A DNA stretch of 64,000 nt from a virus. The translations under genes were made by a program, and so were the position numbers. The notes beneath the pieces were generated by a model. That model was given only the letters and a program-made list of their open reading frames with translations. It searched no databases and was not told the origin of the DNA. Where the stretch lies: IMG/VR virus record IMGVR_UViG_3300036766_000678, positions 116,417 to 180,416 of that record; one strand, 5' to 3'. The stretch's first letter is position 1, and every line of letters starts with the position of its first letter. Shown here one piece after another: positions 5,823-59,829 of this stretch.

Positions 5823-6473
5823 TTATTCCTCAACAATTCCCTTAAGCAAATTTCGAGCCTTATTCAAACTTGTTTCAACATTAAAATTCTTGATTTCATC
5901 CCATTCTTCATCTGTCAATTCTTTCTTAGGAGGTATTGCTTCCTCAGTAACATCGTGTAAAGAAGGCTGCTCTGGGATTTGTTCCCATTCTTTTTTAGGA
6001 ACATATTGATATTTTTTCTTTGGTTCTAAAGGAACATTAACTTGTTTTGGTTTTTGAACAGGTGCTTGCCTAACTCGTTTAGGAGCAACAGGAGTCTTTG
6101 TTTTTGGTGCATATTGTGGTGTTGAAATACTTGTGTCGGTGTTTCCATATGAATCAACACGAACATCAGACAAGTTTGGGCCAGAGACAATCAATGTACA
6201 ATTAATATCGCCTGGATGCGATTTTTCGAATAAGGGGGCCGAAAAATTTAAACCCCCTACAAAATCTTCTATATTCCACTTTTGACGATTTAGATCGACG
6301 CAACGTGAGTGCCTAGACGCGCCTGAGTCCCATTCTACAATCTGATACCCCTGGGAAGCTAAATCTTCCAATACTGGTAAGGACATATCCTGACGAGTAT
6401 TTCCTACAGCCTGTTTATTTAGCCTGTTTATTTTTTGAGCTTTTTCGGCTAGTTTTTCTTCCCAATTGGTCAT
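5823..6473 (-). CDS. MuF-like minor head protein
   Basis: W...C..L...APLFEKSHPGDINC resembles the MuF C-terminal HPxCxC region; lies between portal and protease. Confidence 0.4.
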   Translation of the reverse strand: MTNWEEKLAEKAQKINRLNKQAVGNTRQDMSLPVLEDLASQGYQIVEWDSGASRHSRCVDLNRQKWNIEDFVGGLNFSAPLFEKSHPGDINCTLIVSGPNLSDVRVDSYGNTDTSISTPQYAPKTKTPVAPKRVRQAPVQKPKQVNVPLEPKKKYQYVPKKEWEQIPEQPSLHDVTEEAIPPKKELTDEEWDEIKNFNVETSLNKARNLLKGIVEE

Positions 6474-6702
6474 ATTTTAGTTCCAAATATTCGAGATTAT
6501 CACTTGTTAAAAAATTAGGGCATTTACAATCAAAATTTGGTCTTGGATTACTTAGAATTTTTATCCACAAGCAGGGCTTCTTCCCTTTTCGTGAACAGGT
6601 AGCGTGATCAAAACGTGAATGCTTGCATGTTCGGCACCTATCTCTATTTGTTTCTTCTACTATTTGCATGTACCCTGAAAAATTATATGTTTTGCTTATC
6701 AT
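6415..6702 (-). CDS. Small Cys/His protein with DNLxYLE tag
   Basis: CRTCKHSRFDH...CKCPNFLTSDNLEYLELKY. Confidence 0.75.
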   Translation of the reverse strand: MISKTYNFSGYMQIVEETNRDRCRTCKHSRFDHATCSRKGKKPCLWIKILSNPRPNFDCKCPNFLTSDNLEYLELKYDQLGRKTSRKSSKNKQAK

Positions 6703-6895
6703 AAAGGTACTCTAAATACTTCAAGTTCTCTTTAGGTAAAAATTCTGCACATTTACAAGCTAGAGTAAAATTCTTAAAAGCCATATAAATACATTTACCT
6801 GGTTTTTTATCCACATCAGTATGACTTAAAAAATAATGTTCACAATTCCTGCACAATTCGAAATTAAAAATATTCTTAATTCGTCTAATTGGCAT
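6683..6895 (-). CDS. Small Cys/His protein with DNLxYLE tag
   Basis: CRNCEHYFLSH...CKCAEFLPKENLKYLEYLY. Confidence 0.75.
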   Translation of the reverse strand: MPIRRIKNIFNFELCRNCEHYFLSHTDVDKKPGKCIYMAFKNFTLACKCAEFLPKENLKYLEYLYDKQNI

Positions 6896-7161
6896 TATCT
6901 TCCAGGCTCATTGTACCCATGTTCAGCCAAAATCTTAGAAGCCATTTTAATTAAATTATAATTTTTATCTTTAACACTACGTTCAAATTGTTTAAATGCT
7001 TGTTCATTTTGAACAGCCATACGAGCACAATCTATAGAAAATCCCATAAGCTGTGTAAGCAAAGAACCCATTAATATCGGGATATTAAGCTCTTCTTGCC
7101 CATCAGATCCTACGATTAAATATTCATCTTCTTTTTTTGGTTTCTCTTGCATAATACCCAC
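6895..7161 (-). CDS. Hypothetical protein
   Basis: SD-like AAGGA upstream; tightly packed in the operon. Confidence 0.6.
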   Translation of the reverse strand: MGIMQEKPKKEDEYLIVGSDGQEELNIPILMGSLLTQLMGFSIDCARMAVQNEQAFKQFERSVKDKNYNLIKMASKILAEHGYNEPGR

Positions 7162-7200
7162 CTTATCTTATCCTTTTAATTAAGTTAAATGACTAAAAAA

Positions 7201-7253
7201 TCGTATATAAACAATATTCCCTATATACACCACTTTTAGTTATATTTTTACAT
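7201..7253 (-). promoter_or_regulatory. Conserved 53-bp intergenic element, copy 1 (candidate late promoter)
   Basis: 47/53 identical to 20935..20987; minus-strand core ATGTAAAAATATAACTAAAA. Confidence 0.6.
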
Positions 7254-7276
7254 CAAAAACAATATTACCTACTACG

Positions 7277-57195: not shown

Positions 57196-57513
57196 CTACT
57201 TTGCGGGAGAGAGTGGAACAGTTGGAGCTACAACCACTGGTGCCTCTGTTGTTACAGGAGCAGTTGCAGCCAGTGCTGGTGTTTCAACTGGAACAGGGGC
57301 TTTATCCAATGACGGGGGAAGCTCCGTATCAATAGCCTTCTCATCAATATTCGAGATCTCTTTTTTGAGATCAGGAACAACTGGAGGTGCTACTGGTGCT
57401 ACTGGAACCTTTACTTCAGGTACTACAGGGGCTGCTGGGGCAACTACAGGTCTATCTCTAACTAGGTCTTGCAACCAAGGGGCTGGCTTTAACGGATTTG
57501 GATTTTCGGGCAT
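57196..57513 (-). CDS. Pro/Ala/Val-rich low-complexity protein
   Basis: Composition; SD AGGAG upstream. Confidence 0.55.
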   Translation of the reverse strand: MPENPNPLKPAPWLQDLVRDRPVVAPAAPVVPEVKVPVAPVAPPVVPDLKKEISNIDEKAIDTELPPSLDKAPVPVETPALAATAPVTTEAPVVVAPTVPLSPAK

Positions 57514-57514
57514 T

Positions 57515-57988
57515 TTAATTCTCCTTTAAGTTTGTATTGTTAACTAGCTCATTACAGGCATTTTCATATACCTTTGATGCTTCAATTTCTGTATCAAAAT
57601 AACCTAGGCTTTGTTGTCTACCATTAATTACAATTCTAGCTTGCCATCTATTAACACGCTTATGAAAGTAACATCCAACTAACCTACCATTTCGATGATT
57701 ATTTGTATTTTGTTGATTTTTTCTATTTGTTACTATTCGTAAGTTGTTTCTCTGATTATTTAATCCATCTCCATCAATATGATCGACTTCTTGATTATCT
57801 AGAGGGTACCCTATAACAATATGATGAAGATATATTGCTCCTCTTTGACCTTTACTTTTTTGAAAATTTCTTACAGCATAGTATCTATTCTTATCTTTTC
57901 TGGCATACCACTTTAAATGCCCAATAGCTTCGTAGATATCATCATCTACTAAAGCTATTTTACCTTGTGTTAATGTTATTTGTTTCAA
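57515..57988 (-). CDS. HNH-AP2 homing endonuclease
   Basis: YLHH...VDHIDGDGLNNQRNNLR; AP2-like RWQARI...LGYFDTEIEA. Confidence 0.88.
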   Translation of the reverse strand: MKQITLTQGKIALVDDDIYEAIGHLKWYARKDKNRYYAVRNFQKSKGQRGAIYLHHIVIGYPLDNQEVDHIDGDGLNNQRNNLRIVTNRKNQQNTNNHRNGRLVGCYFHKRVNRWQARIVINGRQQSLGYFDTEIEASKVYENACNELVNNTNLKEN

Positions 57989-58187
57989 TTATGTACTTTT
58001 ATGCCTGTGCTGTTTCTACAGGTGCAACAGTTACATTAGCAACTTTGCGCCAGTTATACAAAGTTGGAAGTGACAAGGAATATTGCTTTGCCAACTCAAC
58101 CTTGTTTACATCTGGATTTTGTAACGCTTCTAGTACTGCTCTTTTTACTTCTGGGTCTATCTTTTTTCGTGCCATTTTGTTTCTCCT

Positions 58188-58682
58188 TTATTTATTATTT
58201 AGTTCGTTAAAAATAACAGCTTCTTCTTCCGAAAATGCCCCGTCAACAGCAGTTTGTATTTCAATTTCCCCATTTCGTTGTTTTGCCCATACGTCTATAA
58301 GACGTTTAATATGATCTGGGGTAAATAGAAAGCCTTCTAACATAACAGAGGCACAACGCACAAGATGCTGTGATTCTACTTCTCCCAAATTCATAGAATA
58401 ATCTACAATTAATTTATTAGCAATATCATGTCGTACTGTATAATCAGAACTCGCTAATGCCTCATCTAGTGATATATTACCAAGTCTAGATACGGAAGGA
58501 GAAGCAACCACTTCCCCTCTATATAAAGGTCGTTTAATATAAGTTTCAATACTTGATCTAAATGTGTAATCACTTACATTTAAGTGCTTTCCAATCTTAT
58601 AAGCTGTTTTAAAACATAAATCAAATAGAACATATTCTAAGGATTCAATTTTATTTCTTACTAAACGTTTAAGATATGCCAT
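58188..58682 (-). CDS. Hypothetical protein
   Basis: SD AGGAG; clean ORF. Confidence 0.55.
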   Translation of the reverse strand: MAYLKRLVRNKIESLEYVLFDLCFKTAYKIGKHLNVSDYTFRSSIETYIKRPLYRGEVVASPSVSRLGNISLDEALASSDYTVRHDIANKLIVDYSMNLGEVESQHLVRCASVMLEGFLFTPDHIKRLIDVWAKQRNGEIEIQTAVDGAFSEEEAVIFNELNNK

Positions 58683-59430
58683 TTAATTCTCCTTTATCTA
58701 ATTGCAACTTGTTTGAAATTTCCATCTATGAATCTACCATGAGCATCTAGAAGCGTCCAGTATCCTCGCATAGCCTTAGCTTCGGTAGATCCTTGGAGCC
58801 AAACCTGATCATAATTATTCCCAGTAAAAATTCTTTGAATCTTTCCCCCCTCATCCTGAATTGCAAGAACAAAAAGCTTATTATTTACTTGCTTCGTTGT
58901 CTTTGCCATTTTCTTGTTCCTCCGTCTTTCGCTTATATTCCGCTGCATACCAATTCCAAATAGCAAATACTACTCCCATGCCTAAAAGCAAAAGACTATG
59001 CGCTAAAGCTCCTACAAATGCAAAAGTAATGTTAACCCCACATACTAGATAAGAATACTTACTATTCAAGTTATTTTGCCCCCTTTAAGTTTTCAATTTT
59101 ATCTTCATCAAGCCTACCTGTAGTAGTATCAAAACACCTTTTCAAAAGAACTCCAACAAAAATTACTAAAACAACAAAAAATAAAATAAAGACAAAATGA
59201 ACTAAATATTTCATAATTTTATTATAACAAATGCAATTTACGAACTTCTTCTCCCAATGATGAAGTAACAACAAAACGTTTTGCTTCTAATTGATTTCCT
59301 TTAATCCACCCTACTATATAGTATACATCCTTTTGTACATCATATATCCATTCAATTTTCTTGCCACTCAATTTGAATATTCTAGAAATTTCATTAAGTT
59401 CTTCTAATGTACTTATTAAGAGATCTTGTG

Positions 59431-59829
59431 TCATTGTCTACTTCTCTCCTTTTCTTTCATCTCTAGATAGGCTCTAGAAATGGCCTCTGAAGCTGTTTTT
59501 CCATATTCACTACAATCCCCCATCATGCAACACCATCCCCCTTCAGGATAAGCAATCAAACTCCAATTGCTAAATCCCATATCTCTGCCTATATAATTTG
59601 ACATGTGGGTATGAGCATATTTTCTAACAATCCTCCAAGCATCATTCATATCTTCAACAAAATTAGGTATTGGCCGCTTTGTAGGCTGAGATGTATTAGA
59701 CGTTTTAAAATATTCCTGATAATCACACTCAGGAGGTATGCCAATTGTTTGGCCATTAAAAGACATAATCTCAGTCCAACCCCATTCTTTTGCTACTTGA
59801 ATATTAAGCTCTTCCAGTTCGAGATTCAT
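59431..59829 (-). CDS. Phage ABA-sandwich-like protein
   Basis: VAKEWGW...IPNFVEDMNDAWRIV...ASEAISRA. Confidence 0.5.
   Translation of the reverse strand: MNLELEELNIQVAKEWGWTEIMSFNGQTIGIPPECDYQEYFKTSNTSQPTKRPIPNFVEDMNDAWRIVRKYAHTHMSNYIGRDMGFSNWSLIAYPEGGWCCMMGDCSEYGKTASEAISRAYLEMKEKERSRQ

Follow-up and report, generated by a model that had tools for sequence, protein, structure and literature searches.

Long unidirectional gene overlaps of phase 1, in which the initiation signals of the downstream gene lie inside the coding sequence of the upstream gene, have been described before (Fonseca et al. 2013, PMC3887535; for translational coupling, see the review PMC12548453), and they are favoured in AT-rich, compact genomes (PMC3887535). 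Here we analysed a window of 64,000 nucleotides (nt), bases 116417-180416 of a 180,416-bp IMG/VR record from an uncultured phage whose genome we label G000, in which a family of small genes ends in a conserved DNLxYLE tail followed by a Tyr codon. From sequence comparisons we put at roughly 0.6 the probability that the ATG contained in the Tyr10-Asp/Glu11 codons of this tail truly starts the next gene at about half of the family junctions, as one expression of a junction module found throughout the phage clade. The joints resemble long phase-1 overlaps in that the two genes lie on the same strand and overlap by at least 6 nt in the +1 frame, with the upstream open reading frame (ORF) running on to a stop and the downstream start embedded in upstream codons. 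Indeed, both features of such overlaps are found in G000, the +1-frame overlap of at least 6 nt and an upstream tail that is the 5' region of the downstream gene read in another frame. Unlike long phase-1 overlaps in general, the joint is fixed to one position of a protein motif at about 100 junctions in at least six phage records, the residue at the joint follows the start codon, and two motif codons double as a Shine-Dalgarno (SD) sequence where the start is GTG or TTG.

A second known arrangement is the ATGA or TGATG pair of termination and reinitiation, with overlaps of 4 or 1 nt (Huber et al. 2019, PMC6728339; PMC10666635; PMC12548453). The joints are likewise found in tightly packed, co-directional genes, often without an SD sequence, and coupled translation would be a plausible benefit. 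However, a terminating ribosome would have to move backwards to reach their start, 14-56 nt upstream of the stop; an overlap of 4 or 1 nt of this type occurs at none of the ten joints described below, and the ATGA type is present at 10 other family junctions of G000.

At the level of the system, the nearest analogue is the PeSL, the mobile regulatory cassette of T4-type phages, which consists of an intergenic promoter with terminator stem-loops and has high DNA identity between copies (Arbiol et al. 2010, PMC2839356; Comeau et al. 2014, PMC4122927). Like PeSLs, the joint is a short, repeated expression-signal element among small variable genes that may coincide with breakpoints of indels and replacements, in our case with a single example at the nucleotide level; unlike them, it is coding and unstructured, would carry translational rather than transcriptional signals, and has copies that are only about 66% identical. 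No intergenic sigma-70 promoter with a terminator stem-loop of the PeSL type was found at the joint, promoter-like hits being at the level of shuffled sequences. One motif copy contains a sigma-70-like pair of hexamers (TTTAGA-16-TATGAT, 42694-42667), which we rejected as a promoter as such hits are no commoner than in shuffles; its -10 hexamer includes the ATG, and a transcript made from it would therefore most likely start beyond the ATG. A further parallel is offered by Botstein's modular theory of 1980 and the boundary sequences of lambdoid phages, in which variable modules are reportedly bordered by short, conserved sequences that lie where genes meet and that could direct recombination. 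Unlike such linkers, the stretch at the joint encodes a functional helix of the upstream protein together with the start of the downstream gene.

G000 has a GC content of 34.5% and carries nearly all of its genes, which we called by a simple longest-ORF scheme, on the minus strand. The tail motif is [DESG]-N-L-x-[YF]-[LF]-[EK]-x-x (27 nt), followed by a tenth codon, TAT, which gives the consensus DNLxYLExxY; it occurs 21-23 times in the window and 45-46 times in the whole genome, always on the coding strand. The genes that carry it are a true family and not merely tagged genes, having in common M-x(2-10)-C-x(1-2)-C-x-H...H, a hypervariable middle and C-x-C-x2-[YF]-x-P-x-DNLxYLE. Dozens of small proteins of zinc type make up the family. 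In the phage clade, about every seventh gene has the helix, which is also present on a small number of further protein types that these phages have conserved. Pfam and PHROGs searches with ten family proteins gave no significant family, the sole near-match being a weak one to ExoX-like_C (E=0.037) over the motif; a likeness to HNH nucleases was considered and dropped, as Pfam gave it no support. In an AlphaFold model of a family protein (mean predicted local distance difference test score, pLDDT, of 63) the motif lies in a helix that extends to about residue 84, with low confidence beyond, and a Foldseek search of this model against the PDB found nothing. A 157-aa protein (window 41390-41863) has a full DNLEYLE in G000 and the degenerate forms GNLGIVE and DGLEIVE in its orthologues of G001 and G002, and thus the motif can decay in place.

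For comparison, five related phage records were taken whole (G001, 192 kb and complete; G002, 120 kb; G003, G004 and G005), which together contain 172 tails. They were reached through a search with the terminase TerL, which led to relatives of 62-71% identity. The sole intermediate relative found, L073, is a 5.2-kb contig that is 68-82% identical to G000 and collinear with window positions 11.5-4 kb.

The preliminary description of this window held that the Tyr codon of the tail supplies the ATG of the next gene at ten sites, and all ten indeed read T-ATG-A/C at Tyr10 and the codon after it. Each of the ten coordinates is the first base of a minus-strand ATG within TAT-GAN (nine sites) or TAT-GCT (def, 42517). 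With the D of the upstream D-N-L-x-Y-L-E taken as codon 1, TAT is codon 10 and is followed by codon 11. The ATG shares the frame of the downstream ORF and is in the +1 frame relative to the upstream tail, and the overlaps, counted to the stop, measure 14, 17, 20, 23, 26, 29, 32, 38 and 56 nt. The joints and their proposed starts are as follows.

Joint 1: 6471..6501, minus strand, DNLEYLELKY-D codons of gene 6415-6702; ATG 6473 as start of the 216-aa gene 5823-6473, with a 59-nt overlap.
Dual-coding overlap at Joint 1: 6405..6479, minus strand, tail of 6415-6702 and putative N-terminus of 5823-6473; 97-100% identical to L073.
Joint 2: 6700..6730, minus strand, tail of 6683-6895; ATG 6702 as start of family gene 6415-6702.
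Joint 3: 8408..8438, minus strand, tail of 8379-8624; ATG 8410 as start of family gene 8189-8410, the only candidate start.
Joint 4: 8622..8652, minus strand, tail of 8584-8928; ATG 8624 as start of family gene 8379-8624, the only candidate start.
Joint 5: 27475..27505, minus strand, tail of 27443-27649; ATG 27477 as start of family gene 27280-27477, the only candidate start.
Joint 6: 36777..36807, minus strand, variant tail DNLAFFKQIY-E of 36757-37071; ATG 36779 as start of family gene 36585-36779, the only candidate start.
Joint 7: 39009..39039, minus strand, tail of 38992-39177; ATG 39011 as start of the 97-aa ORF 38718-39011, for which no orthologue was found; alternative TTG 24 nt downstream.
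Joint 8: 42515..42545, minus strand, tail GNLAYLEYLY-A of 42501-42671; ATG 42517 as start of the peptide deformylase gene (def) 42053-42517.
Joint 9: 42669..42699, minus strand, tail of 42652-42840; ATG 42671 as start of family gene 42501-42671.
Joint 10: 59827..59857, minus strand, tail of 59804-59977; ATG 59829 as start of the 132-aa ORF 59431-59829, for which no orthologue was found; alternative ATG 63 nt downstream.

At six of these ten sites the ATG is the sole ATG, GTG or TTG able to open the downstream ORF, or the alternative would cut a conserved part. From the motif to a point 60 nt beyond the upstream stop, no other candidate start exists at 8410, 8624, 27477 and 36779, and at 42671 and 42517 the alternatives would remove conserved sequence, the only one at 42671 deleting the conserved CxC-H. 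In downstream genes that also belong to the family, CxC-H comes 4-10 residues after the Met at the joint ATG. With def starting at 42517, position 7 of the PHROG deformylase profile aligns to residue 7, and its orthologues in G001 and G002 start with MSVKPVRL at the same place, using a GTG 28 nt past the first motif codon (+28) behind cTTGGAG. The N-termini of orthologues coincide with the +28 ATG for five genes, namely def, the 216-aa gene (6473), a 464-aa gene, G000_230 and G000_258. The TAT-GAC of Joint 1 is also found in G001, G002 and L073, and the N-termini of the 216-aa orthologues align from residue 3; the joints of def, the 216-aa gene and the 464-aa gene predate the split of these phages. 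The starts at 39011 and 59829 are only probable, as they have no orthologues and alternative starts are present.

The preliminary description had also pointed to an eleventh in-frame ATG, upstream of clpP. This one is in frame but is not the start, since clpP orthologues begin with MKPQD or MKPHN at ATG 38212, which has a GGAG 7 nt upstream. Further TATGs that follow a motif without being used are found at 62584, 61166, 41455, 37160 and the second position listed here, where L073 reads TAT-AAT and therefore has no ATG.

clpP junction: 38210..38261, minus strand, tail DNLEFLEWKY-G of 38196-38477; ATG 38233 within TAT-GGG is in frame, and the true start is ATG 38212 (+49).
Unused TATG: 8953..8983, minus strand, tail of 8921-9118; the frame opened by this ATG is just 8 codons long; AAGGAG precedes the start of the next gene, at 8928.

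We observed the association of tail and start far more often than the chance rate, a comparison for which the preliminary description had asked. In G000, 32 of 45 tails form a TATG and 22 of these 32 (69%) open the next ORF, compared to 36 of 196 (18%) for the frame +1 ATGs that other genes contain within their final 20 codons (p=2e-8). Long forced overlaps, which no nearer start can avoid, occur at 15 of 45 family junctions, in 13 cases exactly at +28, and at 14 of 270 other junctions (p=4e-7). Overall, the next ORF can start at +28 in 22 of 46 cases and in none at +31 to +37. The codon at position 10 is TAT rather than TAC in a ratio of 39:1, compared to 29:13 for Tyr5 (p=7e-4) and to a genomic TAT fraction of 0.83 (p=0.005). 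About 11 of the 22 downstream genes are mutually unrelated (def and the 216-, 464-, 144-, 123-, 132- and 97-aa genes among others), and thus the pattern is not accounted for by one pair copied in tandem. The sites around the +28 starts belong to the most AU-rich and least folded class, with a mean folding energy of -2.5 kcal/mol compared to -5.3 kcal/mol at random sites, and no hairpin like that of an integron attC site was found there. The earlier remark that the ten sites lack an obvious SD sequence agrees with the genome-wide figures: a 4-nt SD core precedes 13% of the forced-overlap family starts of G000, compared to 49% for starts that are unambiguous and 10% for ATGs taken at random. Among the +28 starts of G000 a core is present in 1 of 22, and a GGAG-type core 5-10 nt upstream is not a feature of them.

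The related phages allowed us to separate the position of the joint from the residue that occupies it. For 54 of their 172 tails the following ORF can first start at +28, for 17 at +31, for 8 at +34 and for 5 at +37. Residue 10 is not conserved, being Tyr, Asn, His or Asp with ATG, Ser or Cys with GTG, and Val, Ile or Leu with TTG, and Tyr10 is tied to start use (27/37 vs 27/135, p=4e-9). At the joint of def, the pair of codons is TAT-GCT in G000, TGT-GAG in G001 and AGT-GAG in G002, and thus the constraint on positions 10 and 11 comes largely from the downstream start codon. An SD core is found at 20 of 23 GTG or TTG starts but at 10 of 52 ATG starts (p=4e-8); for the GTG and TTG starts it always lies at +17/+18, where it is the TTG-GAG or CTG-GAG of Leu6-Glu7, 7 nt before the start. 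In G001, GGAG is present in 9 of 23 used tails and in 1 of 26 unused ones. As an observation apart, Tyr occupies position 10 in 40 of 45 tails of G000, 18 of which keep it without start use; in the relatives, unlike G000, Tyr10 is mostly restricted to used joints.

Taken together, these data are consistent with the following scheme. The next gene would start 28 nt (less often 31-37 nt) past the first motif codon, in the +1 frame, at the point where the conserved helix ends, and the upstream gene, having no stop of its own at the joint, reads through the first 5-20 codons of the next gene to the first stop. Residue 10 is whichever gives an NTG, that is Tyr (TAT-G) in the AT-rich G000 and Ser, Cys, Asn, Asp, His or Tyr in the relatives, with Tyr probably preferred because it suits both the hydrophobic face of the helix and xAT-G. 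The DNA of the motif would then serve as the translation-initiation region of the downstream gene in one of two modes, a strong start codon without an SD sequence or a weak start codon with an SD sequence written in the motif. As all family genes end in the motif, NTG and Lys-rich codons, they could be added or lost as units running from start to start with their neighbours left intact. On this evidence, the unit proposed in the preliminary description, of about 30-40 nt, would act as a conserved expression joint across the phage clade.

Several observations weigh against this interpretation. An alternative downstream start exists at four of the ten sites in the window (6473, 6702, 39011 and 59829), the database gene call for 6415-6702 (P0001) uses the second ATG, and the presumed start use of these ATGs is deduced from ORF logic and orthologue N-termini only. 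For 6415-6702, the longer form with ATG 6702 is probably real because the relatives keep NFxGY upstream of the second Met. The 18 unused Tyr10 codons have no significant excess of TAT (17/18, p=0.16), and therefore Tyr10 in G000 is also a protein-level or inherited feature. GGAG is found in the Leu-Glu codons of none of the 45 copies in G000, where all +28 starts are ATG, and an SD role can therefore not be claimed for this genome. Furthermore, third positions of the downstream genes are 78% conserved within the overlap and 52% after it (p=4e-6; one junction dominates the pooled figure), and therefore the run-on tail may be constrained or recently exchanged.

The residues after Tyr10 are the 5' region of the next gene in another frame, as seen for the tail EEKSHKS of family gene G000_257, which matches NEEKKPEA, the tail of a non-family gene that precedes the orthologous downstream gene in G001. 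The three tails proximal to clpP all end in N/D-E-T. The idea that the run-on tail is a free by-product is weakened by the conservation of wobble sites and by the overlap at 6405..6479, which is 97-100% identical to L073; the genes that flank this overlap are only 55-70% identical to L073. Two relatives of the upstream gene 6415-6702, P0005 and P0009, have the N-terminus MTKNxxNFAGYMQVV in common and identical protein tails, with bodies that are 69% and 47% identical and a completely different Cys-rich middle, which suggests that the middle segment of the family may be swapped or hypervariable.

The alternative that survives best is that the unit of about 40 nt, made up of the motif, the ATG and Lys-rich codons, chiefly serves recombination, homologous or relaxed, by which start-to-start cassettes are shuffled, the +28 spacing being inherited as a block. 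We regard this as a tentative proposal, with the odds against it. Its best support comes from L073, in which gene 8379-8624 is absent, exactly from ATG to ATG, though its neighbours are present.

Start-to-start unit: 8411..8624, minus strand, gene 8379-8624 to the base before the next ATG; missing in L073.

A single 77-nt stretch of L073 (L073c 1830-1906) aligns to both window joints, 8683-8607 and 8469-8393, and the upstream tail in L073 is a hybrid of YDKK, as in 8584-8928, and RKESTPSL, as in 8379-8624, with the switch in the Lys-rich codons just 3' of the common T-ATG-A. Thus, judged from the two sequences, this unit was in all probability gained or lost within the joint between G000 and L073. 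It is, however, the one case at the nucleotide level. Two further cases are seen at the gene level: def is preceded by a gene of one orthology group (A) in G000 and of another (B) in G001 and G002, with its start always at +28, and the family genes that precede clpP in three phages are all unrelated, the orthologue of the one in G000 being located elsewhere in G001. The junctions are islands of 80-100% identity in surroundings of 55-70%, but such conservation is also expected from dual coding and initiation signals. The similarity of bodies and tails is incongruent among P0003, P0005 and P0009, and the peak at +28 in G000 is very sharp.

The DNA of the motif itself speaks less clearly for a recombination site. 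The near-identity of some copies noted in the preliminary description was borne out, the 32-mer at about 59.83 kb matching each of the two other copies at 30 of 32 positions, and a comparison of G000 with itself by BLAST revealed a 44-nt patch of 93% identity (59822-59865 and 39004-39047) that covers the motif and the ATG of two otherwise unalignable family genes and that could be due to gene conversion or to constraint within a subfamily. However, no longer stretch of shared DNA contains the motif, and the motif 32-mers of G000 have a mean pairwise identity of 21/32 (~66%), with at least 28 matches in only 13 of 990 pairs. Between G000 and G001, 19 of 26 variable junctions have a non-family upstream gene in the other genome, and therefore most gain or loss does not need a motif on both sides. 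Indeed, the ATG that a family gene precedes at G000_230 and G000_258 is kept to the base in G001 and G002, where a non-family gene precedes it. Gene flux is high everywhere, just 37 of 110 non-family neighbours being conserved, and non-orthologous family genes before the same conserved gene were counted in 5 cases, not clearly more than the approximately 3 that we estimate for random placement.

The earlier suggestion that the unit is a gene-cassette or recombination joint, with breakpoints in relatives falling inside the motif, is therefore upheld in part: it has the crossover within the joint in L073 and the gene-level cases of def and clpP in its favour, and the variable junctions that lack a motif on the opposite side and the modest identity of the copies against it. 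No unrelated gene that newly acquired the tag was found in the genomes compared. It is possible, though we consider it doubtful, that the joint of about 40 nt (DNLxYLE codons, NTG and Lys-rich codons) is a coding-embedded recombination site for the insertion, deletion and swapping of start-to-start cassettes, whose products would keep a tagged upstream protein and a downstream initiation site, the motif then being conserved partly for its role as DNA. A contributing role of the joint in recombination, beside that of expression, seems to us a comparably uncertain prospect.

It is improbable that the overlaps are a by-product of ancestry and composition, arising from a Tyr-Asp/Glu consensus, a Tyr codon that is TAT in 83% of cases genome-wide and the tandem duplication of one ancestral overlapping pair, the ATG itself being under no selection. 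Of the 22 used joints, about 10 do lead into a family gene, in tandem arrays, the unused Tyr10 codons show no significant preference for TAT, and long phase-1 overlaps are the commonest long overlaps generally and become more frequent at low GC (PMC3887535). However, some 11 downstream genes are unrelated to one another, the rate of 69% stands against a chance rate of 18%, and the bodies of the paralogues are too diverged for recent duplicates. Furthermore, the +28 peak persists in the relatives, where residues and start codons differ, and in them the presence of an SD sequence compensates for the type of start codon.

That the ATGs are an annotation artefact, merely the most upstream in-frame start of a longest ORF with the true start further downstream, is very unlikely: clpP is such a case, G000_308, whose second ATG is the one that agrees with its orthologue, may be another, and alternatives exist at the four sites named above, but 6 of the 10 sites in the window and 13 of the 15 forced overlaps genome-wide have no other start unless conserved residues are lost, orthologue N-termini agree with the +28 ATG in five genes, and the joint regions are as unstructured as bona fide starts.

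Relatives closer than those used here were sought in several ways. No cultured phage matched G000 in a blastn search of INPHARED, and def, clpP and a 364-aa protein, used as probes against IMG/VR, returned distant relatives only, 31-58% identical. TerL found one contig at 90% identity in JGI metagenomes, whose end falls short of the family genes, and the best candidate for a close relative is an 80.9-kb contig that encodes P0003 (80% identical). The ends of the G000 record repeat each other, window 63848-63999 being 99.3% identical to the 152 nt with which the record begins, and this points to a terminal repeat or to circular assembly. A repeat 60-90 nt long, with the core AATGTAAAAATATAACTAAAA ... 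TATATAGGGAATATTGTTTATATACGATTTT, occupies larger gaps between genes at window positions 7185-7272, 20930-20986 and 37349-37414 as well as outside the window, is kept in L073 (3020-3102) and may be a phage promoter or regulatory element. Gene 9118-13107 (1329 aa) lacks about 1 kb of its middle in L073 (window about 10047-11095), and thus an internal domain or insert varies among relatives.

Overlapping genes and start signals within upstream codons are ordinary; what is unusual here is that one conserved helix would double as the initiation region of whatever gene follows it. New are the fixed register to a protein motif over about 100 junctions, a residue that depends on the start codon and an SD sequence encoded by the motif, and a trade-off between the strength of the start codon and the SD sequence becomes visible. 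On a practical matter, gene callers assign wrong starts to such genes, as in the database call for 6415-6702. The joints provide a natural, many-fold replicated case in which to study dual coding and initiation without an SD sequence. If the joint also guides recombination, it would be the translational counterpart of PeSLs or of Botstein's linker sequences, and it would explain how arrays of small, hypervariable phage genes can grow and shrink without loss of expression.

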